From an uncultured Clostridia bacterium (lineage in GTDB: Bacteria; Bacillota; Clostridia; TANB77; CAG-508), in assembly GCA_904378095.1 (NCBI GenBank), contig CAJFHE010000004.1, positions 3,588 to 67,587 on the forward strand: a DNA stretch of 64,000 bases, given 5' to 3'. A program made the translations under genes and the position numbers. This document shows, piece after piece, positions 1 to 45,453 of this stretch. The notes beneath the pieces were generated by a model. The model searched no databases and was not told the origin of the DNA. It saw only the letters and a program-made list of their open reading frames with translations. Position 1 is the stretch's first letter; each line of letters opens with the position of its first letter.

Positions 1-77
1 AGTGTGTTGCTAGATAAATGCAGTTCTAAATTTTTATCATAGCCCATATAATTTAAGACAAGATATTTTGATAAATT

Positions 78-998
78 ATGGAGGTTACGATGGTAATAGG
101 TTATATAAAACAAGAAAGAAAAGCACAAAATTTATTTAGAGGAATAGAAATAAGAAGTTTTGACAATAATTATATAATAACAATTTACAATGCGGAAAAA
201 TATAGGACAAAGAAGAGGCTTGTAAGATTTATTCATAAGTTGGGGATTGAAGCAGTTGTGTTTTCAAAAGAGCTAGATGGAGAATTTAAAAGAGAAATAT
301 GCGAAATGATGAATGGCGTTAGAATTGTAAATGGTAGAAAATTGATGGAATATATGGGATTTGACATATTTGAATATATATTAAATAAGCAACAAGTGAA
401 TATGAAGCAAGAAGATATATATATTATTTTTAAAAGAGATTCCAATTTAAATTTAAATCTTTTAAAGATTTTTATAGAAAATTTTAGAGTTGCTAATATA
501 GTTACAAATGATATTGAAAAACTAAAAAATGTGCAAGAAAATTTGCTAGAGAATGATAATATTCTTATTTCTGTTTCAAATAATAAAAAGAAGGCTTTGA
601 AAAGGGCAAAATATGTGTTAAACATTAATCTTACAAAGAATGAGCTAGAAAAGTACAAAATTAACAGAGAAGCAATAATTGTAGATGTGGGAGAAGATGT
701 AAAATATGCAAGTCCAAGCTTTGACGGCATAAATATTAGCTATTTCGATATTACAGCTCCAGACGAGTTAGTAGAAAAGTTTGAGAGCATAGGAGGAAAT
801 TTTGAGCTAGTAAAATTGTATGAAAGTGCTTTGTTAAAGGATGAACTTCAAAAAGCAAAGATAGAAGATGTGTATGACAGAATAAAAAGAGATGAAATAG
901 CTATAACCGAGTTAATTGGAAATAATGGAAGGATTACAGATGAAGAGTTACAGAAAATTCACAATCTAAACCTTGACAAAATGCGAAAATTAGTTTAA
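78..998 (+). CDS. hypothetical protein (306 aa), no recognisable domain from sequence
   Basis: Long ORF upstream of greA; no motif recognised. Confidence 0.4.
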   Translation: MEVTMVIGYIKQERKAQNLFRGIEIRSFDNNYIITIYNAEKYRTKKRLVRFIHKLGIEAVVFSKELDGEFKREICEMMNGVRIVNGRKLMEYMGFDIFEYILNKQQVNMKQEDIYIIFKRDSNLNLNLLKIFIENFRVANIVTNDIEKLKNVQENLLENDNILISVSNNKKKALKRAKYVLNINLTKNELEKYKINREAIIVDVGEDVKYASPSFDGINISYFDITAPDELVEKFESIGGNFELVKLYESALLKDELQKAKIEDVYDRIKRDEIAITELIGNNGRITDEELQKIHNLNLDKMRKLV

Positions 999-1075
999 TA
1001 TATTACATGTTGTTTAAAGAAGCGATTTTCTTGTTTTAAACAACGATTTTCTTTTAACAAAAGGAGGGAGACAAA

Positions 1076-1555
1076 ATGGATTCTGAAAAAGAAGTTCTAT
1101 TAACCCAAGAAGGTTATGACAATTTAGAGAAAGAATTAGAATACTTAACAACAGAAAAAAGAGCTGAAATAGCAGAAAGAATTAAAATAGCATTGGGATT
1201 TGGAGATTTATCAGAAAATTCAGAATATGATGAAGCAAAAAATGCTCAAGCTGCAAATGAAACTAAAATAGCTGAATTAGAGAATAAGCTTAGATATGCT
1301 AAAATCATAGATGAATCTGAGATAGATACAAAGACAGTTCAAGTAGGCAACACTGTTAAAGTTTTAGATATGGAATTCAACGAAGAAGAATCATACACAA
1401 TAGTAGGCTCAACAGAAGTTGATTTAGCTCAAAACAAGATTTCAAACGAATCTCCAATAGGCTCAGCACTAATGGGAGCTAAAAAAGGTCAAATAGTAGA
1501 AGCTCAAGCACCAGCAGGTGTAATTAAATATAAAATAATCTCAATTACAAAGTAA
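1076..1555 (+). CDS. greA: transcription elongation factor GreA
   Basis: 159 aa; GreA N-terminal coiled-coil and C-terminal FKBP-like domain pattern; RBS AAGGAGG upstream. Confidence 0.9.
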
Positions 1556-1562
1556 AAGGAAA

Positions 1563-4500
1563 TTGGTATCTGTAATGAAAAATATGCTTATAAATGAGCT
1601 TGAAGCAAATGACAAATTCAAGCAATTAATAGATGAAATTGAGATGAAAAAAACCCCGATATTTATATCGGGGTTAGAATTCGTTGGAAAATCCCACATG
1701 ATTTCGACTGTTTCTGATACAGTAAAAAAACCAATTTGCATTGTTACATACAATGAATTGCAGGCAAAACAGCTAGTTAAAGATTTAAAATATTTCCAAG
1801 AAAAAGTAGAGTATTTTGGCAAAAGAGAAATAGCTACATATGACTATATTTCAGAGAGCAAAGACTTACCATATGCAAGAATAGAAGTTTTAAATAAAAT
1901 TTTAAACAAAGATGTAGATATCGTTGTTACTACTATAGAAGCTATAATGCAGCCAATGATTTCAAAAAAAGTGTTGTACAGAAATGTGCTAACTTTTACA
2001 GTTGGAAACTTATTTGAGTGTAGCGGATTTAAAGGAAAAAAGGCATTAAATAACTTAAAACAAATACTTTTGTTGATGGGATATGAAAGAAATGATTTAG
2101 TAGAAAATAAAGGTCAATTTAGTATCAGAGGTGGAATTGTAGATATTGGACTTTCTGAGAAAACTGGTGTTAGAATTGAATTCTGGGGAGACGATGTAGA
2201 TTCTATAAGATATTTTAGTATAAGCTCACAGAGAACTACTGAAATGACTGAAAAAGTAAAAATATTCCCTGCACATGAATATATTTTTGATTATGACTAT
2301 GAAGATGAAGTTTTGCCAGAATATTCAGAGATTGTGGGAAGCATCTGCAAAAAGATAAGAGAAACAAATTCGGATGGAAAAACAAATAAATTGCTAGAAG
2401 CATTCGAAAGAAATAATGATGCAAGTGGCTTTGCAAAGACTGTAGAAGCGGATATAGAGGCAATTCAAAATGGAGAGTATCTTAGTAAAATAGACAAGTA
2501 TTTCAATGAGTTTTATTCTAAGAAGTCTAGCTTTTTAGAGTATTTGCCAAGTAATTGCTTGTTATTTGTTGATGAAAATTTAAAAATAAATCAAAGAATT
2601 GAAAATATTGTTATAGAAAATAATAACTTGATAAAATCTTTGATGGAAAAAGAAAGATTTGTTCCAGAGGCAATAAGAAATATAAGTGATTTTAATAAAG
2701 AGGCTTGGAATGGAATTTTCGAAGAAAGGCAGACAGTTTATTTAGAGGAAAATAACAGCAATTCTGTAAATAAATTTGAATTTAATTATAGACAAATTAA
2801 TTTTCATAAAGCCGAAACAGAGTTATTAATTAATGATATAAAAAAATGGCTTTCTGAAAATAAGCAAGTGGTAATACTTGCTGGCAATAAGGAAAATGTA
2901 GAAAAAGTAAAAAATCTGCTTAGTGAAAACGAAATTTTAACCACTGATGCGGAAAAAAACTCAAAAAATGAGTTATACAGCAATGGAAAAAGTGAACAGC
3001 CTAATATGGCAAAAAATCCTGAAACTAATTTTCTTAATAAGGCCTGTCCCCAAAACGACAAAGTTGTCGTTTTTAGGCCTGTCCCTATAACGACAGGAGG
3101 GCTTTCTTCTGGATTTGAGTGCTATGATTTGAATTTAGTTGTAATCAGCATGGCAGAAGCTCTAGAGGGAGAAGTAAAGAAAAGAAGAACAAGTAGCACT
3201 TTCAGGCAGGGAGAAAAAGTTGTTTTTGCAGATTTAAAACAGGGTGACTATGTTGTACATAGAACTCAAGGAATTGGACAATTCGTTGGAGTAAACACAA
3301 TAGAGGCAGATGGAGTTACTAAAGACTATATTAAAATCAAATACAAGAATGATGATATGCTTTATGTGCCAACAAGCAGCTTGGATAATGTTAGGAAGTA
3401 CATTGGTGGAGGAGATACAGCTCCTAGATTAAATAGGCTTGGCAGCAAAGAGTGGAGCAATACTAAATCAAGAGTAAAAAATAACTTAAGGGAAGTTGCA
3501 AAAGACTTAATTGAGCTATATGCAAAAAGACAAAAAATGAAAGGATTTGCTTTTTCAAAAGATACAGATTGGCAAAGACAATTTGAAGACGAGTTCCCAT
3601 ATCAAGAGACAGATGACCAATTAAGATGTATAGAAGAAGTAAAAAAAGATATGGAGCAGTCTAGACCAATGGATAGATTGCTTTGTGGCGATGTTGGCTA
3701 TGGTAAAACAGAAGTTGCAATAAGAGCAGCATTTAAAGCGGTAATGGACCACAAGCAAGTAGCATATCTAGTACCAACTACAGTACTTGCTAATCAGCAG
3801 TACGAGAGTTTTAAGAAAAGAATGGAAGGTTTTGCAATTACTGTTGAGCTTTTAAATAGATTTAGAACAAAAAAAGAGCAAGACGAAGTAGTTAAAAAAC
3901 TAAAACTAGGAGAAGTAGATGTAGTTATTGGTACACATAGATTGCTTAGCAAAGATGTGGAATTTAGAGACTTAGGACTTCTCATAATAGATGAGGAGCA
4001 CAGATTTGGAGTAAAAGATAAGGAAAAAATAAAGAAACTAAAAACAAGTGTGGATGTACTTACTATGACAGCAACTCCAATTCCTAGGACACTACACATG
4101 TCAATACTTGGCATTCGCGACATGTCTGTTATATATGAGCCACCACAAAATAGAAGACCAGTTCAAACTTATGTATTAGAATATGATGCAGAAGTTATAA
4201 AAGAAGCAATTACAAAAGAGCTAGAAAGAGGCGGACAGGTATTTTATTTGTATAACAAAGTGGAAAACATAGAGAAAAAAGCAATGGATATTGCAGAGCT
4301 AGTACCAGAAGCAAAAGTGGAATATGCACATGGAAAAATGTCAGGTAGAGAAATAGAAGACATCATGGAAAGATTTATTAATGGAGATGTTAATGTTTTA
4401 GTGTGCACAACAATTCTAGAATCTGGAATAGATATTCCAAATGCAAACACAATCATTGTAGAAAACGCAGACAGACTAGGATTGGCACAACTTTACCAAA

Positions 4501-5237
4501 TACGTGGAAGAGTCGGAAGAAGTGACAAGCAAGCCTATGCATATATTACATACAAAAGAGATAAGCTATTATCAGAAGTTGCAGACAAAAGATTAAAAGC
4601 AATACGTGAATTTACCGAATTCGGATCAGGCTTTAAAATAGCAATGAGAGACTTGGAGATAAGAGGAGCAGGAAGCTTGCTAGGAGAAATTCAACATGGA
4701 CATATGGAGCAAGTAGGGTATGACACTTACTGCAACTTACTAGACCAAGTGGTAAAAGAAATGCAAGGAATGGAAGTAGAAGAAGAGCAAGAAATTCAAA
4801 TAGACATCAATATTTCAAGCTATATACCAGATAGCTATATAGAAAACAGTAGCCAAAAAATTGAAGTATATCAAAATATAGCACTATGTAGAACAGAAGA
4901 AGATATACAAAATGTAATTGATGAAATTATAGATAGATATGGTGTAATGCCAAAAGAGTTAGAAAATCTAATAGAAATAGCACGTATTAAGGAATTATGT
5001 AGAAATGCTGGAGTAATTAAAATATCAGAAAAGAAAAACGTATTTAATGACACGAAAAATGTGGTATTCTATTATGATAAAAATAAATATAATCCAGAAA
5101 ATGTGGATATACTAATCAAAAAATATGGATATGACATAAAATTCTCAGCAGGAGTAGAGCCATATGTTACTTTAAGAGTAGGTAACCTAAACGATGAAGA
5201 GCTCATAGAAAAGATAAAGGAATTTTTGTCGTTATAG
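1563..5237 (+). CDS. mfd: transcription-repair coupling factor Mfd. Alternative start is the ATG at 1575. Carries an in-frame copy of repeat family A at 3040-3095
   Basis: 1224 aa; helicase motifs GDVGYGKTEVA and DEEHRFG; UvrB-like N-terminus and TRG C-terminus. Confidence 0.9.
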   Translation: MVSVMKNMLINELEANDKFKQLIDEIEMKKTPIFISGLEFVGKSHMISTVSDTVKKPICIVTYNELQAKQLVKDLKYFQEKVEYFGKREIATYDYISESKDLPYARIEVLNKILNKDVDIVVTTIEAIMQPMISKKVLYRNVLTFTVGNLFECSGFKGKKALNNLKQILLLMGYERNDLVENKGQFSIRGGIVDIGLSEKTGVRIEFWGDDVDSIRYFSISSQRTTEMTEKVKIFPAHEYIFDYDYEDEVLPEYSEIVGSICKKIRETNSDGKTNKLLEAFERNNDASGFAKTVEADIEAIQNGEYLSKIDKYFNEFYSKKSSFLEYLPSNCLLFVDENLKINQRIENIVIENNNLIKSLMEKERFVPEAIRNISDFNKEAWNGIFEERQTVYLEENNSNSVNKFEFNYRQINFHKAETELLINDIKKWLSENKQVVILAGNKENVEKVKNLLSENEILTTDAEKNSKNELYSNGKSEQPNMAKNPETNFLNKACPQNDKVVVFRPVPITTGGLSSGFECYDLNLVVISMAEALEGEVKKRRTSSTFRQGEKVVFADLKQGDYVVHRTQGIGQFVGVNTIEADGVTKDYIKIKYKNDDMLYVPTSSLDNVRKYIGGGDTAPRLNRLGSKEWSNTKSRVKNNLREVAKDLIELYAKRQKMKGFAFSKDTDWQRQFEDEFPYQETDDQLRCIEEVKKDMEQSRPMDRLLCGDVGYGKTEVAIRAAFKAVMDHKQVAYLVPTTVLANQQYESFKKRMEGFAITVELLNRFRTKKEQDEVVKKLKLGEVDVVIGTHRLLSKDVEFRDLGLLIIDEEHRFGVKDKEKIKKLKTSVDVLTMTATPIPRTLHMSILGIRDMSVIYEPPQNRRPVQTYVLEYDAEVIKEAITKELERGGQVFYLYNKVENIEKKAMDIAELVPEAKVEYAHGKMSGREIEDIMERFINGDVNVLVCTTILESGIDIPNANTIIVENADRLGLAQLYQIRGRVGRSDKQAYAYITYKRDKLLSEVADKRLKAIREFTEFGSGFKIAMRDLEIRGAGSLLGEIQHGHMEQVGYDTYCNLLDQVVKEMQGMEVEEEQEIQIDINISSYIPDSYIENSSQKIEVYQNIALCRTEEDIQNVIDEIIDRYGVMPKELENLIEIARIKELCRNAGVIKISEKKNVFNDTKNVVFYYDKNKYNPENVDILIKKYGYDIKFSAGVEPYVTLRVGNLNDEELIEKIKEFLSL
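3040..3095 (+). repeat. Repeat family A copy 1, forward orientation, inside the mfd coding frame
   Basis: AGGCCTGTCCCCAAAACGACAA-AG-TTGTCGTTTTT-AGGCCTGTCCCTATAACGACA; translated in frame as ACPQNDKVVVFRPVPITTGG. Confidence 0.85.
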
Positions 5238-5282
5238 GGACAGACCTAAAAACGACAAAGTTGTCGTTTTGGGGACAGACCT
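5227..5282 (+). repeat. Repeat family A copy 2, reverse orientation; encodes the last codons and stop of mfd and sits before the trmH-like RBS
   Basis: TTGTCGTTATAGGGACAGACCTAAAAACGACAAAGTTGTCGTTTTGGGGACAGACCT. Confidence 0.85.
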
Positions 5283-5297
5283 AAAAGAGGAGGAGCA

Positions 5298-6092
5298 ATG
5301 CAAGTAATTTCAAGCAAAGATAATGAAATTGTTAAAAACATTAGAAAATTAAAAGAGAAGAAGTATAGAGATTTAGAAAATGCATATATAATAGAAGGCA
5401 TAAAGCTGGTAAAAGAAGCAATTGCAGAAAATGCCAAAATAAGGCAAATTGTTATGTGTGAGGATTTTAACGATACTGTAGAATTGGATAAGGATACTTT
5501 ATATGAGATAGCAAGACACAATTTAGTTGCAGTTACAAAAAATGTGTTTAATGCGATTACAGATGTAAAAACTCCACAAGGTATTATTGCAGTAATCGAA
5601 AAGAATGGAGCGAGCGAAAACGAAGCGGACTATTCTCAAGACATAATAATAGCTTTAGATGATATACAAGACCCAGGAAATTTGGGCACTATACTTAGAA
5701 CTGTAGATAGTGCTAATTTAAAGCAAATAATACTTTCTAAAAATAGCGCAGACCCATATAACCCAAAAGTAGTGCGCTCTACCATGGGAGCAATTTTTAG
5801 AGTAAATATTATAGAAACAGAGAATTTACAACAAGAGCTAAGTAAAGCACAGAAAAATGAATTTAAAGTAATGGTTACTTCTCTTGACACAAAAAATAGT
5901 GTATATGATGTGGACTATAATAAAAAAGTAATTGTTATAGGGAATGAAGCAAATGGGGTTTCAAAAGAAATACAAGATATGGCAGATGAGAAGGTAAAAA
6001 TACCAATGCTTGGAAGGACAGAAAGCTTGAATGCTTCTGTTGCAGCAGGAATTATGATTTATGAGTATGTGAGAAGAAAAGTTGCACAGTAG
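5298..6092 (+). CDS. TrmH/SpoU-family RNA 2'-O-methyltransferase (RlmB-like)
   Basis: 264 aa; SpoU methylase motifs (GNLGTILRT, IGNEANGVS). Confidence 0.8.
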   Translation: MQVISSKDNEIVKNIRKLKEKKYRDLENAYIIEGIKLVKEAIAENAKIRQIVMCEDFNDTVELDKDTLYEIARHNLVAVTKNVFNAITDVKTPQGIIAVIEKNGASENEADYSQDIIIALDDIQDPGNLGTILRTVDSANLKQIILSKNSADPYNPKVVRSTMGAIFRVNIIETENLQQELSKAQKNEFKVMVTSLDTKNSVYDVDYNKKVIVIGNEANGVSKEIQDMADEKVKIPMLGRTESLNASVAAGIMIYEYVRRKVAQ

Positions 6093-6101
6093 GAGGCAAA
6101 T

Positions 6102-6539
6102 ATGAAATTAGTAGTACAAAGAGTAAAAAATGCAAAAGTAGACGTAGACGGAAAAACAGTAGGAAAAATAGAAAAAGGATTCTTAGTGCTTTTGGGGGTA
6201 ACCCATACAGATACTAAAGAAACAGCTGATTACTTAGTAAAAAAGCTATGTAGTTTGCGCGTGTTTGAAGATGAAAACGGAAAAATGAATTTAAGCCTAA
6301 AAGATGTGGATGGAAAATTACTTATTGTATCACAATTCACACTTTATGCAGATTGCTCAGACGGAAATAGACCATCATTTGTCAATGCTGCAAAACCAGA
6401 ATTTGCAAATGAGTTATATGAATATTTTTGCGATAAGTGCAAGGGAAATGGCATAGAAGTAGAAAAGGGAATATTTGGCGCAGACATGAAGGTTAGTCTT
6501 TTAAATGACGGACCAGTAACTATAATACTAGAAAAATAA
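6102..6539 (+). CDS. dtd: D-aminoacyl-tRNA deacylase
   Basis: 145 aa; MKLVVQRV start and SQFTLYADC motif typical of Dtd. Confidence 0.9.
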
Positions 6540-6607
6540 TGTATATTTTTTTAAAATTAGTGATATAATCTATCTATAAAAATTAATAAAGAAGGAGAGT
6601 GCTGTTT

Positions 6608-7687
6608 ATGGATAGGAAAGTGAGAGTTGTACAATATGGTACAGGTAAAATGTCAGTTTATACTATGCGTTATGTTTTTGAAAAAGGTGGAGAGATAGTA
6701 GGTGCTATTGATGTAAATCCCAATGTTATAGGCAAAGATATTGGAGAAATAATGGGAGGAGAAAAAAGAGGTGTAACTGTAACTGATGTAAAAGATGCTG
6801 AAAAGTTATTACAAGAATTAAGACCAGATATAGTTATAGTTACTACTATGAGTCTATTAAATGATATTAAGGATGCGTTTATGCTTTGCGCAAAGCTAGG
6901 AATTAATGCAATATCTACTTGCGAAGAGGCATTTTTTCCATTTAACTCAAACCCAACAGTGGCAAACGAGATTGATGATTTAGCAAAGAAGAATGGATGT
7001 ACTATTACAGGAAGCGGATATCAAGATATTTATTGGGGAGAATTAATAAGCAGTATTGCAGGCTCTACACAAAAAATTACGAAAATAAAAGGAAGCTCAT
7101 CATATAATGTAGAAGATTATGGAATTGCTCTAGCAGAGGCTCATGGCGCAGGTTTGACTTTAGATGAGTTTGACAAAAAAATTGCTTCTGTAGATAGAAT
7201 GAGTGACGAAGATAGACAAAAAATAATAAATTCTGGAGAATATTCACCATCATATATGTGGAATGTAAATGGCTGGTTATGCTCAAAATTAGGATTAACA
7301 CCAATTAGTCAAACACAAAAATGTGTGCCACAAACATATAAAGAAGATATAGAGTCATCAACATTAGGAATGACGGTAAAAGCAGGAACAGCAACGGGAA
7401 TGAGCGCTGTTGTTACAACGAAAACAAAAGAGGGAATTACAATTGAGTCTCAATGTATAGGAAAAGTATATTCTAAAGAGGATTACGACAAAAATGAGTG
7501 GACAATAGAAGGAGAGCCAAATACAACAATAGTAGTATCAAGACCTTCTACAGTTGAGCTTACATGCGCAACCGTAGTAAATAGAATTCCAGATGTTATA
7601 AATGGCAAACCAGGATATGTTTCAACAGATAAATTAGATGAGCTAAAATATTTAACAAAACCAATGAATGAGTATGTAAGAGATTAA
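6608..7687 (+). CDS. DapB-like NAD(P)-binding oxidoreductase (amine dehydrogenase / 2,4-diaminopentanoate dehydrogenase family)
   Basis: Rossmann N-terminus VRVVQYGTGKMS; RBS AAGGAG 8 nt upstream of ATG 6608. Confidence 0.55.
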   Translation: MDRKVRVVQYGTGKMSVYTMRYVFEKGGEIVGAIDVNPNVIGKDIGEIMGGEKRGVTVTDVKDAEKLLQELRPDIVIVTTMSLLNDIKDAFMLCAKLGINAISTCEEAFFPFNSNPTVANEIDDLAKKNGCTITGSGYQDIYWGELISSIAGSTQKITKIKGSSSYNVEDYGIALAEAHGAGLTLDEFDKKIASVDRMSDEDRQKIINSGEYSPSYMWNVNGWLCSKLGLTPISQTQKCVPQTYKEDIESSTLGMTVKAGTATGMSAVVTTKTKEGITIESQCIGKVYSKEDYDKNEWTIEGEPNTTIVVSRPSTVELTCATVVNRIPDVINGKPGYVSTDKLDELKYLTKPMNEYVRD

Positions 7688-7789
7688 TAAAAAATATACA
7701 AAAACAGTGGAGAAATTTCTCTAAAGATGATATAATAGTGTATGTCGTATCAGATTACAATAAAATTTAGCAGAAAAGGAAGGATAAAC

Positions 7790-9550
7790 ATGTACAGAGA
7801 CCATAATTGTGGAGAATTAAATATAACAAATGTTGGAGAAATAGTTACAATAGCAGGATGGGTTCAAAAAATTAGAAATTTGGGCTCAATGGAGTTTATA
7901 GATTTACGTGACCAATACGGAATTACTCAGATTGTAATTAGCGATAATGAAGAAATGCAAGCTATAGCAAATGAGCTTGTTACAGAATGTGTAATTAGTG
8001 TTAAAGGTAAAGTAGTAGGAAGAAGTAACAAAAATCCTAAAATGCCAACAGGCGAGATAGAGATAGAGGCAGAAGAGATAAAAGTGTTAGGTAAATGCAA
8101 AAATATTTTACCTTTTGAAGTTAACTCTGAAAAAACTGGTGAAGCAAGGGAAGATTTACGTTTAGAATATAGATTTTTAGATTTAAGAAATGATAAATTG
8201 CATAAAAATATTTTACTTCGCTCAGCAATAATGAAGACTTTGAGAAGAAAAATGGATGAGCTAGGTTTTACAGAAATTCAAACACCGATTTTAGCAAACT
8301 CTTCTCCAGAGGGAGCAAGGGACTACTTAGTACCAAGTAGATTACATCCAGGTGAGTTTTATGCACTACCACAAGCACCACAACAATTTAAGCAACTTTT
8401 GATGGTGTCTGGTTTTGATAAATATTATCAAATAGCACCATGCTTTAGAGATGAAGACCCTAGAGCAGATAGAGCTCCAGGCGAGTTTTATCAATTAGAT
8501 TTTGAAATGTGCTTTGCCGAGCAAGAAGATGTGTTCAAAGTTTTAGAGGATATTTTTTCCACTGTATTTAAGGAGCATACAAATTGGAAAGTAGATGAGG
8601 CACCTTTTAGACGTATTCCATACAGAGAAGCAATGGAGACTTATGGAATTGACAAGCCAGATTTACGTAATCCACTTATTATTCAAGATGCTACAAAATT
8701 ATTTGCAAATACTGAGTTCAATGCTTTTAAAGATAAAACTATAAAAATAATTGTTGTGCCAAATGGAGCAGAGCAGGCAAGAAAATTCTTTGATAACATG
8801 ACAGATTTTGCAAAAGAAGAAGCTGGAGCAAACGGCTTAGCTTGGGTAAAAGTAGACAAAGAAAACGGCTATACAGGCGGAATTTCTAAATTCATAACAG
8901 ACGACATAAAAGAAGGTTTAGAAAAAGAATACAATGTAAGAGTAAATGATGCAATTTTCTTTATTGCAGATGAATTGAAAACAGCACAAAAAATAGCTGG
9001 TTTAATTAGAATAGAGCTTGGCAAGAGATTAGATTTAATAGAGAAAAATGTATATAAATTCTGCTTTATTACAGATTTCCCAATGTATGAGTTATCTGAT
9101 GAAGGTACAATAGATTTCAATCATAATCCGTTCTCTATGCCACAAGGTGGAAGAGAAGCACTAGAAAACAAAGAGCCACTAGAGATACTAGCATATCAAT
9201 ATGATGTGGTATGTAATGGATACGAAATGGCATCGGGAGCAGTAAGAAACCACGACCCAGAGCTTATGGTAAAAGCATTTGAAATTGCCGGATACAGCGA
9301 AAAAGAAGTTGAAACTAGATTTGGAGCATTATACAATGCATTCCAATATGGTACACCACCACATGCAGGAGCAGCACCTGGACTAGACAGAATGGTAATG
9401 CTTATTGCAGATTCAAACAACATAAGGGAAGTTATAGCATTTCCTAAGAATAAAAAGGCAAGGGACTTACTTATGAGAGCACCAAGTAAGGTTACAGAAA
9501 AGCAACTAGAGGATGTACATATTAAGATAGACGAGGTTAAAGATGAGTAA
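7790..9550 (+). CDS. aspS: aspartate--tRNA ligase
   Basis: Class II aaRS motifs FRDEDPRADRAPGEFYQLD and GAAPGLDR; extended -10 TGATATAAT at ~7727. Confidence 0.9.
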   Translation: MYRDHNCGELNITNVGEIVTIAGWVQKIRNLGSMEFIDLRDQYGITQIVISDNEEMQAIANELVTECVISVKGKVVGRSNKNPKMPTGEIEIEAEEIKVLGKCKNILPFEVNSEKTGEAREDLRLEYRFLDLRNDKLHKNILLRSAIMKTLRRKMDELGFTEIQTPILANSSPEGARDYLVPSRLHPGEFYALPQAPQQFKQLLMVSGFDKYYQIAPCFRDEDPRADRAPGEFYQLDFEMCFAEQEDVFKVLEDIFSTVFKEHTNWKVDEAPFRRIPYREAMETYGIDKPDLRNPLIIQDATKLFANTEFNAFKDKTIKIIVVPNGAEQARKFFDNMTDFAKEEAGANGLAWVKVDKENGYTGGISKFITDDIKEGLEKEYNVRVNDAIFFIADELKTAQKIAGLIRIELGKRLDLIEKNVYKFCFITDFPMYELSDEGTIDFNHNPFSMPQGGREALENKEPLEILAYQYDVVCNGYEMASGAVRNHDPELMVKAFEIAGYSEKEVETRFGALYNAFQYGTPPHAGAAPGLDRMVMLIADSNNIREVIAFPKNKKARDLLMRAPSKVTEKQLEDVHIKIDEVKDE

Positions 9551-10580
9551 AAAAGTTTTGTTAGGCATGAGCGGAGGCGTGGATAGCTCTGTCGCAGCAA
9601 TATTGTTAAAAAAACAAGGATATGATGTAGTAGGAGCTACCATGAAATTATGGGAAGCTCCTATTGATGATGCAAAGAAAGTATGCGAGCAGCTAGGAAT
9701 AGAGCATCATGTAATAGATTTAAGAGAAGAATTTAAAAAAAGAGTTATAGATAATTTTGTGTGTACATATATGTGTGCTAAAACGCCAAATCCTTGTGTA
9801 GAGTGTAACAAATTTATGAAATTTGATGCTTTTTATAAAGCTGCAAAAGAGTATGGCTGTGAATACATTGCAACAGGTCATTATGCAAAGGTTAGGTATT
9901 CTGAAAAATATAATCAATATGTATTGGCAAAAGCAAATGCAGAAGCAAAGGACCAAAGCTATTTTTTGTATGGAATAAATAAAGAAATTTTACCATATAT
10001 AATATTTCCACTTTCTGAATTTATGGACAAAAATGAAATACGAAAAATAGCAGAAGAAAATGGACTAGAAGTTGCACAAAAAAAAGATAGTCAAGAAGTG
10101 TGCTTTATACCGAATAATGATTATGTCAGCTTTTTAAAAGAAATAAATTCTTTTGACACAAACAATAAACCAGGAGACATAGTTTTAAACACTGGAGAAA
10201 AGCTAGGTACACATACTGGTTTAATAAATTACACAGTTGGCCAAAGAAAGGGGCTAGGAATAGCTTACAAAGAGCCACTATATGTGTTAAAACTAGACAA
10301 AGAGAAAAATCAAGTAATAGTTGGTACGGAAAAAGAATTGTATAGCACAGAGCTAGTAGCAAACGAGCTAAACTTCTTAATTGATGGCATAGATTTTAGC
10401 GAAGAAATTAATGTTATGGCAAAAATAAGGTATAGAGCAAAAGCAGCAGCCTCAACCTTAAAAATAGAAAATAATCAAGCAGTAGTAAAATTTAAAGAGG
10501 CACAAAGGGCAATCACTCCAGGACAATCCGTTGTGCTATATGTAGATGACATTGTACTTGGAGGAGGAAAAATAATCTGA
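9543..10580 (+). CDS. mnmA: tRNA-specific 2-thiouridylase MnmA
   Basis: PP-loop SGGVDSS at N-terminus; 345 aa. Confidence 0.9.
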   Translation: MSKKVLLGMSGGVDSSVAAILLKKQGYDVVGATMKLWEAPIDDAKKVCEQLGIEHHVIDLREEFKKRVIDNFVCTYMCAKTPNPCVECNKFMKFDAFYKAAKEYGCEYIATGHYAKVRYSEKYNQYVLAKANAEAKDQSYFLYGINKEILPYIIFPLSEFMDKNEIRKIAEENGLEVAQKKDSQEVCFIPNNDYVSFLKEINSFDTNNKPGDIVLNTGEKLGTHTGLINYTVGQRKGLGIAYKEPLYVLKLDKEKNQVIVGTEKELYSTELVANELNFLIDGIDFSEEINVMAKIRYRAKAAASTLKIENNQAVVKFKEAQRAITPGQSVVLYVDDIVLGGGKII

Positions 10581-10657
10581 ACAAATTTTCGCCAAACTAT
10601 TGATTTATTTTCTAAATCATGGTAAAATATTTACATGATTTTTAGAGAGGTGATTAT

Positions 10658-10903
10658 ATGTGTAAGAACATATCTGAAAAAGAGGAATTTGAAGCATTAA
10701 TCGCACAAATAAACGAACTATTAAGCGAAATAAAAAACGAACAAAAAAATCTTAAAGAAGCTGTAGCAAACAATCATAAAGTGAATATGCAAAAATTTTC
10801 TAAATTACTAGAATACAACGAAATTCTTGACATGACTAACACTATATTTGAAAAAAGACTATCAAGCATAGAAAAATTACTTTATGAAGTTTTTAAAAGC
10901 TAA
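10658..10903 (+). CDS. small coiled-coil hypothetical protein (81 aa)
   Basis: ORF with RBS AGAGAGG; no domain recognised. Confidence 0.4.
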   Translation: MCKNISEKEEFEALIAQINELLSEIKNEQKNLKEAVANNHKVNMQKFSKLLEYNEILDMTNTIFEKRLSSIEKLLYEVFKS

Positions 10904-10906
10904 CTG

Positions 10907-24424: not shown

Positions 24425-26179
24425 ATGAAAGCAATAGAAATTAGAAACAAATATTTAAATTACTTTAAAAACCATGGGCATAAGGTAATTCCAAGTGCAC
24501 CACTTATACCAGAAAATGACCCATCGGTTTTATTTACAACAGCTGGAATGCAACCATTGGTACCATATTTGTTAGGTGAGAAACACCCAGAGGGAACTCG
24601 TCTTACAGATTATCAAAAATGTTTACGTACTAATGATATAGACGAAGTTGGAGACAATAGACATTTAACATACTTTGAAATGCTTGGAAACTGGTCATTA
24701 GGCGACTATTTTAAAGAAGAATCTGTAGCAATGAGCTTTGAGTTTCTAACAAAAGAGTTAGGAATACCAGTAGAAAGGCTTTCTGTTACATGCTTTGCAG
24801 GAGACGAAGATGCTCCAAGAGATGAAATTACAGCAGAATGTTGGAAAAAAGCTGGAATTCCAGAAGATAGAATTTATTTTTACGGAAAAGATGATAACTG
24901 GTGGATAGCAGGAGAGGAAGGACCATGCGGACCAGATACAGAAATGTTTTATGATACAGGAAAACCAGCATGCTCGCCAGATTGTCAGCCATCTTGTGAT
25001 TGTGGAAAATATGTGGAAATATGGAATAATGTTTTCATGGAATACTACAAAACAAAAGATGGAAAATACGAAAAATTAAAACAACATAATGTTGATACAG
25101 GACTTGGACTAGAGAGAATGACTATGCTTTTACAAGGCAAGGAAACACCATTTGACACAGAGTTATTTGCTCCAATTATGGAAAAATTAGAAGAGATTGA
25201 AAAAGTAGATGATATAGCTAGCAGAAGAATTGTAGCAGAGCATTTGCGTGCTAGCATGATGGTAATTGCAGATGGCGGCAGACCTTCAAACATAGATAGA
25301 GGATATGTTTTAAGAAAATTAATAAGAAGAATGTCAAGACATTTAAACAAATTGCAAGTAGATTTAAGCGAGTTAGAAGGATTAATAGATTTAGACATAG
25401 ATATTTTAAAAGAAATGTATCCAGAGCTTGAAAAGAATAGAGACACAATCAAACAAGTCATTACAGAAGAAAAAGACAAGTTTATGAAAACTCTTGCCCA
25501 TGGAGAGAAAGAATTTGAAAAAGCTATAAATAAAGCAAAAAATGAGAATAAAAATGTAATAGATGGACAAACTATATTTAAACTATATGAAACATATGGA
25601 TTCCCACCAGAAATTACAGCAGACTTAGCAAGGGAGCAAGGATTTGAAATAGATAATTCAGAATTTGAAAAGCTATTCAAAGAGCATCAAGAAAAATCAA
25701 GAATGGGTAGTGAGCAAAAATTCAAAGGTGGTTTGGCTGAGCAAAACGAAAAAACAATAGCATACCACACAGCAACACATTTACTTCATAAGGCATTACA
25801 AATAGTTTTAGGTGAGCATGCAACACAAAAAGGCTCAAACATCACAACAGAAAGATTAAGATTTGACTTTTCACATCCAGAAAAAATGACAAAAGAGCAA
25901 TTACAACAAGTTGAAGACATAGTAAATGAGCAAATAAAAAGAGATTTACCAGTAACATGTGAAGAAATGACACTTGAAGAAGCAAAAAAATCAGGTGCAA
26001 TGGGCTTATTCGAAAATAAATATGGTGACAAAGTAAAAGTATATACAATAGGAGATTTTAGCAAAGAAATATGTGGTGGTCCTCATGTGTCACACACAGG
26101 TGAATTAGGACATTTCAAAATAAAGAAAGAAGAATCAAGCTCAGCAGGAGTAAGAAGAATTAAGGCAGTTTTAGAATAA
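24425..26179 (+). CDS. alanine--tRNA ligase-like protein (catalytic plus editing domains, lacks the C-Ala domain), 584 aa
   Basis: AlaRS class II N-terminus (FTTAGMQP, GDYFKEE); editing-site motifs HTATHLLH and CGGPHV; ends about 290 aa short of a canonical AlaRS. Confidence 0.7.
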   Translation: MKAIEIRNKYLNYFKNHGHKVIPSAPLIPENDPSVLFTTAGMQPLVPYLLGEKHPEGTRLTDYQKCLRTNDIDEVGDNRHLTYFEMLGNWSLGDYFKEESVAMSFEFLTKELGIPVERLSVTCFAGDEDAPRDEITAECWKKAGIPEDRIYFYGKDDNWWIAGEEGPCGPDTEMFYDTGKPACSPDCQPSCDCGKYVEIWNNVFMEYYKTKDGKYEKLKQHNVDTGLGLERMTMLLQGKETPFDTELFAPIMEKLEEIEKVDDIASRRIVAEHLRASMMVIADGGRPSNIDRGYVLRKLIRRMSRHLNKLQVDLSELEGLIDLDIDILKEMYPELEKNRDTIKQVITEEKDKFMKTLAHGEKEFEKAINKAKNENKNVIDGQTIFKLYETYGFPPEITADLAREQGFEIDNSEFEKLFKEHQEKSRMGSEQKFKGGLAEQNEKTIAYHTATHLLHKALQIVLGEHATQKGSNITTERLRFDFSHPEKMTKEQLQQVEDIVNEQIKRDLPVTCEEMTLEEAKKSGAMGLFENKYGDKVKVYTIGDFSKEICGGPHVSHTGELGHFKIKKEESSSAGVRRIKAVLE

Positions 26180-26246
26180 TGTCGTTATAGGGACAGGCTT
26201 TATGGCGACAAGTTTGTCGTTTTTAGGCCTGTCCCTATAACGACAA
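26180..26246 (+). repeat. Repeat family A copy 4: palindromic variant with inverted TGTCGTTATAGGGACAGGC arms
   Basis: TGTCGTTATAGGGACAGGCTTTATGGCGACAAGTTTGTCGTTTTTAGGCCTGTCCCTATAACGACAA. Confidence 0.8.
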
Positions 26247-27528: not shown

Positions 27529-27606
27529 GGTGGATGTAGCGCAGTTGGTTAGAGCGCCAGTTTGTGGCACTGGAGGCCGTGGGTTCGAGTCCCATCTTCC
27601 ACCCCA
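27529..27606 (+). tRNA. tRNA-His (GUG) with the extra G-1
   Basis: Anticodon loop TTGTGGC; 8-bp acceptor stem including G-1:C73; T-loop TTCGAGT; CCA end encoded. Confidence 0.85.
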
Positions 27607-27627
27607 TCAATTTTATATTTTATACAT

Positions 27628-27702
27628 TGGGCTGTAGCCAAGCGGTAAGGCACCAGACTTTGACTCTGGCATGCGCTAGTTCGAATCTAGCCAGCCCAAC
27701 CA
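27628..27702 (+). tRNA. tRNA-Gln (UUG)
   Basis: Acceptor TGGGCTG/CAGCCCA; anticodon loop CTTTGAC; T-loop TTCGAAT; CCA encoded. Confidence 0.85.
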
Positions 27703-32124: not shown

Positions 32125-32137
32125 AAAAGAAAAAAGT

Positions 32138-32194
32138 AGGCTTGTCCCAAAAACGACAAAGTTGTCGTTTTTAGGCCTGTCCCTATAACGACAA
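32138..32194 (+). repeat. Repeat family A copy 5, forward orientation; its 3' end ACGACAAGGAGG forms the folD RBS
   Basis: AGGCTTGTCCCAAAAACGACAAAGTTGTCGTTTTTAGGCCTGTCCCTATAACGACAA. Confidence 0.85.
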
Positions 32195-36880: not shown

Positions 36881-36881
36881 A

Positions 36882-36916
36882 ATCTTGTTTTTGGGGACGG
36901 AGGAAAAAAACAAGAT
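36882..36916 (+). repeat. Repeat family B copy 3, immediately after the xseA stop
   Basis: ATCTTGTTTTTGGGGACGGAGGAAAAAAACAAGAT. Confidence 0.8.
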
Positions 36917-36963
36917 TTTACAGAGAGATAAAGTAAAATTAAATTCAAAGGAGGAAAGATAAA

Positions 36964-42767: not shown

Positions 42768-45383
42768 ATGTCAGAATACACACCAATGATGCAACATTAT
42801 TTAGATATGAAGGAAAAATATAAGGATTGCATTTTATTTTATAGATTAGGGGATTTTTACGAGATGTTCTTCGATGATGCGATTAACGTATCAAGAGAGC
42901 TAGAGCTTACATTAACAGGAAAGGATTGTGGAAAGGAAGAAAGAGCACCTATGTGCGGAATACCATTCCATGCAGCAGATACCTACATCGCAAGATTAAT
43001 TTCGAAGGGGTATAAAGTGGCGATATGTGAGCAGCTAGAAGACCCTAAGTTCGCAAAAGGTATGGTAAAAAGGGATGTTATTAGGGTAGTAACACCGGGC
43101 ACAGTAATGGAAGCAAACTTGCTAGAGGATAAGAAAAACAACTACATTATGTGCATATATAAAAATGGGATTTATTTTGGGGTTACGGTTTGTGATATAA
43201 CAACTGGTGACCTTAGGACAACTGAAATCAAAGAAAGCAATAATTTTGCGGTGCTACTTGACGAAATATCTAAATATTCTCCAGCAGAACTTGTTGTAAA
43301 TCCTATGTTGTTTGATTGCTCTGAAGAAATGAATAAAATAAAAGAAAGATTTGATATTTATGTTACAAGATTAGAAGAAAAAGAATTTACAGATAATTAT
43401 GAAGCTTTATCAGAAAAATATAAAATAGTTGATGATGAAGATAGTACAGTAGAAAATATCTCAAATTATATGTTATCGGTTGCTTCAACTAATGCGCTTT
43501 TTGCATATTTGTTGGAAACACAAAAAAATAATTTGGACCATATCAACAAAATAATAGTGTACAGCACTACTAAGTACATGGCGCTTGATATTAATGCCAG
43601 AAGAAATTTGGAAATTACAGAGAAATTAAGAGATAAATCTAAAAAGGGAACTCTTTTATGGGTATTGGATAAATCTGCAACAGCCATGGGCGGACGAATG
43701 ATTAGAAGATGGCTTAACAATCCATTAATAGATGTAAAGCAAATTAATAAAAGATTAGATGCAGTTCAAGAATTAAAAGATAACATTATTCTAAGGGGAG
43801 ATATTGCAGATAATTTAAAAAAGGTATATGATATGGAAAGGTTAGCTTCTAAAATTTCTTATGGAAGTGCAAATGGTAGAGATTTAATATCATTAAAAAA
43901 TTCTGCAAAGCAATTGCCAGAAATAAAGAAAATATTAGCAGGTACGAAATCTGCCATGCTACAAGAACTTTATAGCGAGTTAGACGTTTTAGAGGATGTA
44001 TATGAATTAATAGACAAAACTATTGTAGAGGAGCCACCAGTTAGTGTTAAAGAAGGCGGACTTATTAAGGTAGGATATGATGAAGAAATAGACAAATTAA
44101 AAACTGCAACTACAGATGGCAAAAACTGGATAATCCAATTGGAGGCAGAAGAAAGAGAAAAGACTGGAATAAAAGGCTTGAAAGTAGGATTTAACAAGGT
44201 GTTTGGCTACTACATAGAAGTAACAAAGTCAAATATGTCATTAGTTCCAGATAGATACATTAGAAAGCAGACACTAACAAATGGAGAAAGATACATTACA
44301 GAAGAGCTTAAAAATCTAGAAAATCAAATATTAGGAGCAGAAGAAAAAGTTGTAAACTTAGAGTATAATGTATTTGTTGAAGTAAGAGATAAAATAGAAG
44401 CACAACTAGAAAGATTGCAAAAATCAGCGGGAATAGTTGCTATGCTAGACGCACTTTGCTCATTTGCAACTATAGCAGAAGACCAAAACTATGTAAGACC
44501 AACTGTTGACAATAATGGAGTTATAGATATAAAAGATGGACGCCATCCTGTTATTGAGAAAATTTTACCTAGTGGAAGTTTTGTTCAAAATGATACATAT
44601 TTGGACAAAGAAGAGAATAGACTAGCTATTATAACAGGTCCAAACATGGCAGGAAAATCAACTTATATGAGACAGGTCGCTTTAATTACACTAATGGCAC
44701 AGGTTGGCAGCTTTGTACCAGCAAGTAGTGCTACAATTGGTGTGGTAGATAAAATCTTCACAAGAGTTGGCGCATCAGACGATTTAAGTATGGGACAAAG
44801 TACATTTATGGTAGAAATGATGGAAGTGGCACAAATACTAAAAGAAGCAACTGAGAACAGTTTAGTTATATTAGATGAAATAGGAAGAGGAACATCAACA
44901 TATGACGGACTTTCAATCGCTTGGGCAGTGGCAGAATACATTTCCGACAAAGAAAAATGCGGAGCAAAAACACTATTTGCAACACATTACCATGAGCTAA
45001 CTGGTTTGGAAAACAAACTAGAGGGAGTAAAAAATTACTCAGTAGCAGTAAAAGAAAAAGGCGAAGATGTTATTTTCCTAAGAAAAATAGTAAAAGGCGG
45101 AACAGACGAGAGCTATGGTGTACACGTTGCAAAACTTGCAGGAGTTCCACAAGTTGTTACAAAAAGAGCAAATGAAATATTAAAATCAATAGAGAGAAAA
45201 AATGTATTAAACAATAAAAAAATAGAAAAGCAAGAAAAAGGGGTTGCAGAGGGACAACTTACAATGTATAATTATAAACTAGCAGAGATTGCACATGAAT
45301 TAGATAAAGTTGACGTAAATGACATAACTCCAATAGAAGCGTTAAATACTTTAGTGAAGATTAAGGAAAAAATGTCGTCATAG
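42768..45383 (+). CDS. mutS: DNA mismatch repair protein MutS; last codons MSS and the stop come from repeat A copy 6; no mutL downstream
   Basis: 871 aa; Walker A GPNMAGKST; ST(F/Y)MxEM motif. Confidence 0.9.
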   Translation: MSEYTPMMQHYLDMKEKYKDCILFYRLGDFYEMFFDDAINVSRELELTLTGKDCGKEERAPMCGIPFHAADTYIARLISKGYKVAICEQLEDPKFAKGMVKRDVIRVVTPGTVMEANLLEDKKNNYIMCIYKNGIYFGVTVCDITTGDLRTTEIKESNNFAVLLDEISKYSPAELVVNPMLFDCSEEMNKIKERFDIYVTRLEEKEFTDNYEALSEKYKIVDDEDSTVENISNYMLSVASTNALFAYLLETQKNNLDHINKIIVYSTTKYMALDINARRNLEITEKLRDKSKKGTLLWVLDKSATAMGGRMIRRWLNNPLIDVKQINKRLDAVQELKDNIILRGDIADNLKKVYDMERLASKISYGSANGRDLISLKNSAKQLPEIKKILAGTKSAMLQELYSELDVLEDVYELIDKTIVEEPPVSVKEGGLIKVGYDEEIDKLKTATTDGKNWIIQLEAEEREKTGIKGLKVGFNKVFGYYIEVTKSNMSLVPDRYIRKQTLTNGERYITEELKNLENQILGAEEKVVNLEYNVFVEVRDKIEAQLERLQKSAGIVAMLDALCSFATIAEDQNYVRPTVDNNGVIDIKDGRHPVIEKILPSGSFVQNDTYLDKEENRLAIITGPNMAGKSTYMRQVALITLMAQVGSFVPASSATIGVVDKIFTRVGASDDLSMGQSTFMVEMMEVAQILKEATENSLVILDEIGRGTSTYDGLSIAWAVAEYISDKEKCGAKTLFATHYHELTGLENKLEGVKNYSVAVKEKGEDVIFLRKIVKGGTDESYGVHVAKLAGVPQVVTKRANEILKSIERKNVLNNKKIEKQEKGVAEGQLTMYNYKLAEIAHELDKVDVNDITPIEALNTLVKIKEKMSS

Positions 45384-45428
45384 GGACAGGCCTAAAAACG
45401 ACAAAGTTGTCGCTTTGGGGACAGACCT
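45373..45428 (+). repeat. Repeat family A copy 6, reverse orientation
   Basis: TGTCGTCATAGGGACAGGCCTAAAAACGACAAAGTTGTCGCTTTGGGGACAGACCT. Confidence 0.85.
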
Positions 45429-45453
45429 AAATCTGCGTAACCAATTAGAAAGG

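Follow-up and report, generated by a model that had tools for sequence, protein, structure and literature searches.

The stretch of DNA analyzed here, which we call the window, comprises 64,000 nucleotides (nt) of contig CAJFHE010000004.1 from an uncultured Clostridia bacterium. It contains an open reading frame (ORF) whose predicted product is Mfd, the transcription-repair coupling factor, and within that ORF, in frame, lies a copy of a short, dispersed, hairpin-forming repeat. In this study, we describe the intragenic copy, the family to which it belongs, and a transposase-like gene that is bracketed by inverted family members. We conclude that the segment is probably a dispersed repeat of the repetitive extragenic palindromic (REP) type, part of a system like that of the REP-associated tyrosine transposases (RAYTs), which is tolerated and read in frame in a loop of Mfd domain D3. 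Comparison loci and contigs are given L-numbers, and protein clusters are given P-numbers.

Results

An in-frame copy of a dispersed repeat in mfd

Judged by homology, the product of the ORF is Mfd: its homologues bear the Pfam domains CarD_TRCF_RID, DEAD, Helicase_C, and TRCF, and the product itself aligns with the E. coli Mfd structures 2eyq and 6x26 (E = 5e-210). Window positions 3040-3095 read AGGCCTGTCCCCAAAACGACAAAGTTGTCGTTTTTAGGCCTGTCCCTATAACGACA, a 56-nt copy of the repeat. A repeat search of the window found this copy to be 96% identical to positions 32138-32193 and 91-93% complementary to positions 5227-5282, 17903-17961, and 45373-45428. BLAST matches to intergenic copies on other contigs run from 3032 to 3095 in the case of L087 (64 nt, 96.9%) and from 3029 to 3095 in the case of L101 and L094 (67 nt, 92.5%), so that the mfd copy measures about 66 nt, or about 22 codons, and codes for FLNKACPQNDKVVVFRPVPITT. 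The translated ORF contains NKACPQNDKVVVFRPVPITTGG, the longer stretch across the copy is NFLNKACPQNDKVVVFRPVPITTGGLSSGFE, and the residues of the predicted protein there include FLNKACPQNDK and VVVFRPVPITTGGLSSGFE. A preliminary description of the window had placed a palindromic repeat in frame at 3040-3095, and the sequence, the uninterrupted ORF, and the domains of the homologues all bear this out. It had put the added peptide at 18 to 20 residues; a peptide is indeed added in frame, but its length is about 22 residues, and the GG that follows it is native, being part of the conserved GGLSSGFE that element-free orthologues have too.

The orientation in which the element lies in mfd offers a single stop-free frame out of three, and this is the frame that is used; the opposite orientation has two open frames. 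We considered an internal start codon after GGAGGG that would split Mfd, and rejected it: no start codon lies in frame at a distance that could be used, and 120 of 120 homologues are full length. Misjoining of a repeat into mfd during assembly or binning has also to be weighed, as all available genomes are metagenome assemblies and the repeats probably break such assemblies, many of the contigs being only 1 to 2 kb long. The same in-frame junctions are nevertheless found in 25 near-identical protein clusters (P0001-P0025), with P0001 alone present on 21 contigs, and variants occur in many species; an artifact of this kind is scarcely credible. The features of the mfd copy are listed in Table 1, together with the other family copies in the window and the transposase-like gene described below.

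Table 1. Coordinates of mfd, the repeat copies, and the associated Y1 gene (window positions unless a contig is named)
Feature	Location	Strand	Basis and remarks
mfd ORF	1563..5237	+	ORF list and translation; 1224 codons, uninterrupted; database proteins begin at ATG 1575 (1220 amino acids)
Intragenic REP-like copy	3029..3095	- ('F' orientation, TGTCGTTATAGGGACAGG...)	BLAST to intergenic copies; plus-strand reading FLNKACPQNDKVVVFRPVPITT, predicted Mfd residues ~485-507
Core motif, copy 1	3040..3051	-	AGGCCTGTCCCC, reverse complement of GGGGACAGGCCT
Central palindrome AAAACGACAA-AG-TTGTCGTTTT(T)	3052..3074	.	Folding; left arm alternatively pairs with TTGTCGTT of the terminal arm
Core motif, copy 2 (AGGCCTGTCCC), and terminal arm (TATAACGACA)	3075..3095	-	Codes for RPVPITT, in place of the native beta-strand start before GGLSSGFE
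Family copy	5227..5282	+	Gives mfd its last two codons and TAG stop (..EFLSL*); followed by the Shine-Dalgarno site and start of a SpoU-type methylase gene
Family copy	17903..17961	+	rsgA ORF (17053-17925) ends within the copy, through a later TAA
Inverted doublet of two units, a long hairpin like a REPIN (REP doublet forming hairpin)	26180..26246	.	-47.9 kcal/mol, z = -10.9; directly after alaS
Family copy, orientation as mfd copy	32137..32194	-	Between a YlmH-like gene and folD; arm ACGACAA abuts the folD Shine-Dalgarno site
Family copy	45373..45429	+	Supplies the stop codon of mutS (42768-45383)
Family copy lacking the second unit (first unit only)	62242..62285	+	Between ORF 61546-62238 and convergent spoIVA
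RAYT-like Y1 gene	L101 9783-10574	-	264-amino-acid protein; bracketed by two inverted family copies

Position of the copy within Mfd

The alignment with E. coli Mfd restarts exactly at GGLSSGFE, E. coli residue 428, which places the insert inside domain D3, just before the last strands of that domain. The insert lies about 45 residues upstream of the RNA polymerase-interaction domain (GDYVVH...), so that the preliminary description was right to put it ahead of that domain but not to put it in the linker. The spacing of two conserved anchors around the D3 loop ranges from 57 to 123 residues among orthologues. In an AlphaFold model of Mfd residues 300-700, which is of low confidence (mean predicted local distance difference test score [pLDDT], 53), residues ~459-500 form coil with a pLDDT of 33-35, and PVPITT, the last residues coded by the element, is strand-like and leads into the next strand. 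Element-free orthologues read IITGG, ILEGG, or IMPGG where the native strand stands. The insertion site is a length-variable, probably disordered surface loop of the poorly conserved D3, and the start of the native beta strand seems to be replaced by the end of the element.

Anatomy of the repeat family

The core GGGACAGRYC occurs 11 times in the window, whose GC content is 31%, against 0.09 occurrences expected from base composition; the family is real and far beyond chance. A scan of the sequence collection with GGGACAGRCCTAAAAACGACAA returned 27 metagenome contigs, mostly from one sample, and none of the viral contigs carried GGGACAGRCCTAAAAACGACAA in that scan. An nhmmer profile counts 31 distinct full copies in the window and the 27 metagenome contigs.

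The unit of the family is a hairpin whose stem sequence varies between species and whose apex keeps the motif (T)AGGGACAGGCCT. The stems found are TGTCG/CGACA, GTGGAA/TTCCAC, GTGCCA/TGGCAC, GTCCAC.., and CTTCG/CGAAG, according to species, with the core kept throughout. REPs of enterobacteria and pseudomonads have a conserved GTAG tetranucleotide 5' of the hairpin. A typical copy has about 1.6 units of a 35-nt period. In 'F' orientation it reads TTGTCGTTATAGGGACAGGCCT, then AAAAACGACAAAG, then TTGTCGTTTTGGGGACAGACCT, that is, a 22-nt direct repeat with a spacer, and because the spacer is complementary to TTGTCGTT two alternative hairpins are possible. On folding, the central stem has only three G-C pairs. 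Family similarity stops directly past GGGACAGRCCT on one side, and the subfamily that includes the mfd copy has an additional ..TTAAGAAAA. Tandem arrays of 35- to 36-nt units also exist, as do inverted doublets, which are a minority (window 26180, L103 1362, L005 3186-3256, and L112 7569-7606).

These features bear on whether the family is a classical MITE (miniature inverted-repeat transposable element) of the Correia or enterobacterial repetitive intergenic consensus (ERIC) type, arising by deletion from a DDE insertion sequence, bounded by terminal inverted repeats, and inserted at a target that is duplicated. Small size, many copies, and hairpin potential would all suit such an origin, and the copy at 26180 has inverted ends. 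However, the arms of the standard copy are direct repeats, not inverted, and terminal inverted repeats were not seen in standard copies; no target duplication was seen in the flanks of aligned copies, which were inspected by eye with no dedicated search; and the family flanks a gene for a Y1 protein of the histidine-hydrophobic-histidine (HUH) class. We regard a MITE origin as very improbable, and on the same grounds we abandon the Correia-type likeness proposed in the preliminary description.

No copy matched an Rfam covariance model at the gathering score, and relaxed thresholds gave only chance-level matches. A scan for intrinsic terminators (a GC-rich stem followed by at least five T residues) flagged none of the three copies in window positions 1-20000.

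A RAYT-like gene bracketed by inverted copies

Inspection of the genes bracketed by inverted family copies revealed the Y1 gene on contig L101. The L101 protein matches Pfam Y1_Tnp (IS200-like) at 3.9e-13, and its best NCBIfam match is "REP-associated tyrosine transposase" (REP_Tyr_transpos) with 60.4 bits, the score for IS200 being 20.9 bits. It contains an HUH motif, NNHIHF, and a tyrosine motif, RYIHKNP, the H and Y residues of which are invariant among aligned homologues, and it has an extra C-terminal region of about 120 amino acids. Among PDB entries, a profile of the protein family matches E. coli TnpArep (4er8) best, though weakly (E = 0.13), and the two motifs, HUH and Tyr, line up in that match; a phmmer search of the PDB with the Y1 protein alone gave no meaningful match. 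Probing the 1.8 Mb of loci by phmmer with a TnpA sequence of IS200 had brought up no Y1 transposase, a false negative, as Pfam later found the L101 gene. The product of the other bracketed gene, in L086, is an ordinary metallo-beta-lactamase-fold protein.

Orthologues with 60-75% protein identity are present in four further species (L113-L116, gene at ~3001-3807), and the order RNase J-like gene, GH15 gene, Y1_Tnp gene, radA, disA, and peptidyl-prolyl isomerase gene is kept in all five species. At five of five loci (L101 and L113-L116), a copy in F orientation lies upstream and gives the GH15 gene its stop codon, and a copy in the reverse (R) orientation lies downstream and abuts the Shine-Dalgarno site of radA. 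In L116, the stem variant TTCGTT/AACGAA is found on both flanks of the Y1 gene. These comparisons indicate that the gene is vertically inherited, syntenic, and apparently single-copy. Many Y1 homologues lie on contigs of 1 to 2 kb, which suggests that the flanking repeats break assemblies. Weaker Y1-type paralogues (E values of 1e-24 to 1e-27 to the L101 protein) occur at L003 20-745, L017 ~14468, and L027 ~14359, and the one in L003 is followed by a different repeat of the GGGAC type (GAAACAAGGGGACGGTTCC...).

Metagenome UMIY01 is the source of L101 and of most repeat-bearing contigs, some of which are near-identical to window loci. The L101 contig would thus appear to derive from the same organism as the window or a closely related one.

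The same Mfd loop in related species

The closest genomes are all metagenome-assembled genomes of uncultured gut Clostridia, from humans, rabbits, and ruminants. The core AGGCCTGTCCC is found in the same Mfd loop and in the same orientation in the window, L003-L009, L014, L024, L110, L111, and L112. In all, about ten related species have family members in that loop, and relatives whose Mfd is 77-85% identical have the same or other variants there. The orthologues L010-L013 and L015 have a loop without any such segment or peptide. In this orthologue alignment, a test that had been set beforehand, the segment is lineage-specific, in agreement with the preliminary description, yet it is not private to the species. 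L009 (1508-1621; P0069-P0087) has GPTTTT in place of the GGLSS that follows the element, and its DNA CCTACGACGACAAC resembles an element arm; it may hold a second partial copy.

The variant resident in the loop tends to be that of its own genome. The best match outside mfd to the Mfd copy lies in the same genome for L005 (97% over 37 nt), L024 (91% over 54 nt), L014 (100% over 26 nt), and L004 (96% over 28 nt), and L110 has three in-frame 36-nt units (RPVPKDERDGTN RPVPKPDKLVGK EPVPEPD) that match its own intergenic 36-nt arrays. Between variant classes, the Mfd copies have only the core in common, and the junctions are of at least two kinds, ACA|GGAGGG (window type) and GCC|ATTTTAGAAGGAGGG (L024 type). 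L024 and L110 have mfd genes that are 96.9% identical outside the loop, and their loop content is different. The site right after the recG stop codon likewise holds different variants or unit numbers in L024 (2368-2423), L110 (2213-2378), and L008 (~2100-2200), with one 36-nt unit in L008, two in L110, and in L024 the GTGCCA-stem variant that it also has in its Mfd loop. The differences between L024 and L110 at both sites point to remodeling on a short time scale. A conspecific strain whose mfd is 99.4% identical lacks 81 nt, in frame, at the loop. We considered this strain (L001/L002) as an empty site and rejected the idea: the 81-nt gap does not fit the limits of the element, the element end CTATAACGACA is kept, and the more distant L111 is filled with the same junctions. 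The limits of the gap and the filled state of L111 indicate that the 81 nt were lost secondarily, by a deletion that kept the frame.

Conservation of the mfd copy

Between the window and L111, mfd outside the loop is 82% identical at the nucleotide level, with 66% identity of third positions at identical residues, whereas the element is identical at 66 of 69 nt (96%) and at 20 of 20 third positions, for which the probability is 2e-4. Immediately upstream of the element, identity of the loop DNA is only 71% (Fisher test of element versus flank, P = 9e-4). The pair L024 and L007 behaves in the same way, with 87.6% identity outside the loop, 75% at third positions of identical residues, and 100% over more than 60 nt of element. 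Differences among the copies of the window, L111, and L112 are limited to positions 33, 34, 45, and 53, which are the polymorphic positions of the family itself. The mfd copy evolves several times more slowly than neighboring synonymous sites. Ordinary coding evolution fails to explain this conservation, which reflects either direct constraint or exchange with other copies.

These data can be set against a single ancient in-frame insertion in the ancestor of the clade, followed by ordinary coding evolution of a domesticated peptide, like that of a Rickettsia palindromic element (RPE), with no ongoing exchange. Such a history would account for the wide occurrence of RPVPI-x-T/P-GG directly before LSSGFE among 77-93% identical orthologues, for the junctions and the alignable upstream loop that the window and L111 have in common, and for the resemblance of the last residues to part of a strand. 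It predicts, however, about 18% nucleotide divergence and about 34% third-position divergence where 4% and 0 of 20 are observed. It is also at odds with the two junctions, with at least four structurally different loop variants that each match the family of their own genome, and with the recent replacement between L024 and L110. We consider it quite unlikely.

The main rival is selection on a host cis-element. On this account, the hairpin with its GGGACAGGCCT motif would be a site for protein or RNA binding, a signal for RNA processing or stability, or a weak bidirectional terminator under purifying selection, and the mfd copy would be regulatory, acting through pausing, attenuation, or mRNA cleavage. 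Conservation far above that of synonymous sites in two species pairs, variation limited to a few positions, stems that covary around an invariant core, a loop occupied across the clade, and the placement of copies at gene boundaries all fit this idea. It is weakened by the conspecific strain that lost the element by in-frame deletion and by loop content that is wholly different between genomes 97% identical. The close relatives L010-L013 do without the element, intergenic copies lie in both orientations relative to flanking genes, neither Rfam nor the terminator scan flagged copies, and the flanked RAYT-like gene offers a simpler account. We therefore judge selection on a cis-element to be unlikely.

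Other copies and their genomic context

The preliminary description counted six further copies in the window and called them intergenic. Six exist, but three hold stop codons, namely, those of mfd (5235-5237), rsgA (17923-17925), and mutS (45381-45383), so that three housekeeping proteins take their final residues from the elements; of the others, the copy at 62242 is incomplete and the one at 26180 is an inverted doublet. In L012, L024, and L007, mfd overlaps the next gene instead (ATGCAAGTAA). L112 (4935-4975) has an mfd that ends ...TTGTCGTTGTAA, with the same SL tail and no element after it; this tail is either a remnant left after loss of the element or native sequence like an element arm. 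The alaS ORF (24425-26246 region) encodes only 584 amino acids, among them the catalytic and SAD domains; bacterial alanyl-tRNA synthetases are usually far longer, and the C-terminal part of the predicted enzyme appears to be absent. The ORF ends directly at the doublet, which folds into a hairpin of 21 bp or more.

The genomic context of 29 distinct copies other than the mfd copy was classified. Fifteen of the 29 are antisense: they lie between codirectional genes, and their TGTCGTT arm stands 11-21 nt from the downstream start codon, touching the Shine-Dalgarno site. Another 11 are sense copies found right after a gene, with the stop codon inside the element in 7 of the 11 (the element's own TAG in 6), and 3 of the 29 were unclassified. 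Nearly all copies lie in very short intergenic spacers, abutting or overlapping stop codons and Shine-Dalgarno sites. We considered specific targeting of Shine-Dalgarno-like GGAGG, as the arm lies at the Shine-Dalgarno site in 15 copies and at GGAGGG in mfd, and set it aside because it is inseparable from the effect of short spacers.

In 1.8 Mb of loci, mfd is the only long ORF found with copies inside it. An exhaustive phmmer search with the element peptide against 1.84 billion representative proteins, which has one sequence per cluster and limited sensitivity, matched only a 47-amino-acid ORF. The result marks mfd as a special case: the family does not in general reside in frame within genes. 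The likeness to RPEs drawn in the preliminary description is accordingly apt for this one copy and does not extend to the family.

Other repeats and RNA genes

A second small repeat family is represented in the window at 18645-18697, 20544-20596, and 36880-36932, with the same architecture and with all three copies at the 3' ends of genes. It has an A/T-rich stem, AATCTTGTTTTT/AAAAACAAGATT, around a loop (A/G)GGGACGGAGGAA, also given as GGGACGGAGG, and may belong to another Y1 paralogue. Another hairpin family, with the loop GGGACTACTGCC (or GGGACACTCC), lies between mfd and the SpoU-type methylase gene in L110 (13757-13844) and downstream of mfd in L011. Two 52-nt stretches of the window that are 81% alike (10935-10986 and 60758-60809) lie upstream of a MurT-like gene and of ORF 60889-61458. 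The window also contains an ordinary tmRNA gene (tag ADNNRELAYAAA) beside tRNA-Trp on the minus strand (55345-55890) and ordinary tRNA-His and tRNA-Gln genes on the plus strand (27530-27702).

Discussion

The presence of a Y1 gene flanked by inverted family copies, in conserved synteny, leads us to interpret the repeats as a REP/RAYT-like system. Published work recognizes a RAYT by single-copy, syntenic inheritance together with repeats of its own on both flanks (PMC5581495, PMC3116915). The resemblance to the REP/REPIN-RAYT systems of E. coli and Pseudomonas (PMC3116915, PMC3337134, PMC5581495) extends to short hairpin repeats strongly overrepresented outside genes, a syntenic Y1/HUH transposase-like gene flanked by repeats in inverted orientation, lineage-specific stems in a family that persists across species, and occasional inverted doublets. 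Inverted terminal repeats are missing in both, and the flanks inspected here showed no target duplications. The system described here differs in its host, an uncultured gut Clostridia lineage with 31% GC; in a conserved motif that stands at the hairpin apex (TAGGGACAGGCCT) and not as a 5' GTAG; in copies that are mostly about 1.6 direct 35-nt units or 36-nt tandem arrays; in a protein with the extra C-terminal region, scoring below the NCBIfam RAYT cut-off; and in one copy that is intragenic and in frame.

Other families of small repeats share some of these features. Palindrome-associated elements derived from IS200/IS605 use hairpin-dependent Y1/HUH single-strand chemistry, without terminal inverted repeats or target duplication. 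Those elements, however, come from multicopy insertion sequences whose left and right ends are defined and whose target is a short sequence, whereas the Y1 gene here is syntenic and apparently single-copy. RPEs (PMC10969869) are likewise palindromic repeats found in frame in housekeeping genes, adding residues to an apparent surface loop at the same site in related species. They are, however, about 100-150 bp long, occur in Rickettsia, and are in frame in many unrelated genes, whereas here a 35-nt unit (56-67 nt per copy) is in frame in mfd only and the resident copy has been repeatedly replaced. Correia, ERIC, and other MITEs (PMC10969869, PMC3184786) are small, nonautonomous, gene-boundary repeats that can supply stop codons and fold in RNA. 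They originate from DDE insertion sequences, end in inverted repeats, and are flanked by target duplications; here, the standard copy showed no such ends, and the inspected flanks showed no duplications. The pneumococcal BOX, RUP, and SPRITE repeats (PMC3049150) are also modular small repeats of an AT-rich Firmicute, with tandem modules, clustering, adjacent insertion, and terminator-like hairpins, but they bear no sequence relation to this family and have no known flanked Y1 transposase gene.

We propose that the RAYT-like enzyme would recognize the hairpin and its motif on single-stranded DNA and would copy or exchange elements, a process expected to leave neither terminal inverted repeats nor target duplications. 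The copy in mfd may be tolerated because it uses the sole stop-free frame of its orientation, because it adds about 22 codons with the frame unshifted, and because it lies in a length-variable, probably disordered loop of D3, where PVPITT would stand in for the start of the next strand. It would then be transcribed and translated as part of Mfd, and the peptide would presumably be made and be harmless. The resident copy would serve as a landing or exchange site, with new units or variants added alongside it or overwriting it, either through RAYT action or through gene conversion with the conserved core as its anchor. Only in-frame, stop-free outcomes would pass selection on Mfd, and exchange with other copies would keep the mfd copy near consensus.

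Several points weigh against this reading. The strong nucleotide conservation of the mfd copy is compatible with direct selection on the element as well. The score of 60.4 bits is below the curated NCBIfam cut-off of 80, and the link of the Y1 protein to TnpArep in the PDB is weak (E = 0.13), and the mobilizer activity of the protein is putative. L101 does not overlap the window, the two being tied by near-identical repeats and a shared metagenome source. Among the classical hallmarks of REPs, the 5' GTAG is missing and inverted doublets are a minority of the copies. That copies touch Shine-Dalgarno sites and stop codons could follow from how short the spacers are, without any targeting. At the level of the protein, the model of D3 is of low confidence (mean pLDDT, 53), and translation through the element is deduced from the intact ORF. 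Weighing these points with the rest, we still consider a REP-type copy of a RAYT-like system, tolerated and read in frame in the D3 loop, to be the probable identity of the segment. A more far-reaching version, in which the loop is a heritable landing pad in an essential-type gene, Y1-driven overwriting or extension from other copies, by homing or exchange akin to gene conversion, holds the copy to consensus, and PVPITT has been exapted as a strand, is possible but doubtful.

Our literature searches turned up reviews of in-frame MITEs and RPEs and of REPIN/RAYT systems but no description of a REP/RAYT system with abundant repeats in Clostridia or of a repeat in Mfd. A 2017 survey found a strong link to abundant repeats for RAYT groups 2 and 3 alone, with Clostridia represented only in group 1, which is weakly associated (PMC5581495). 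REP/RAYT systems have been studied almost entirely in Proteobacteria, and a repeat-rich system in an uncultured gut Clostridia lineage would widen that range, with a different unit architecture and a syntenic Y1 gene. Several genes take their stop codons from the repeats. As their name says, REPs are extragenic, and an in-frame copy in a conserved repair gene is unusual. The recurrence of family members in this loop in about ten species offers a way into the copying, exchange, and tolerance of such elements, and if the D3 loop does act as a landing pad, it would report naturally, and in frame, on how REPs turn over under coding constraint.

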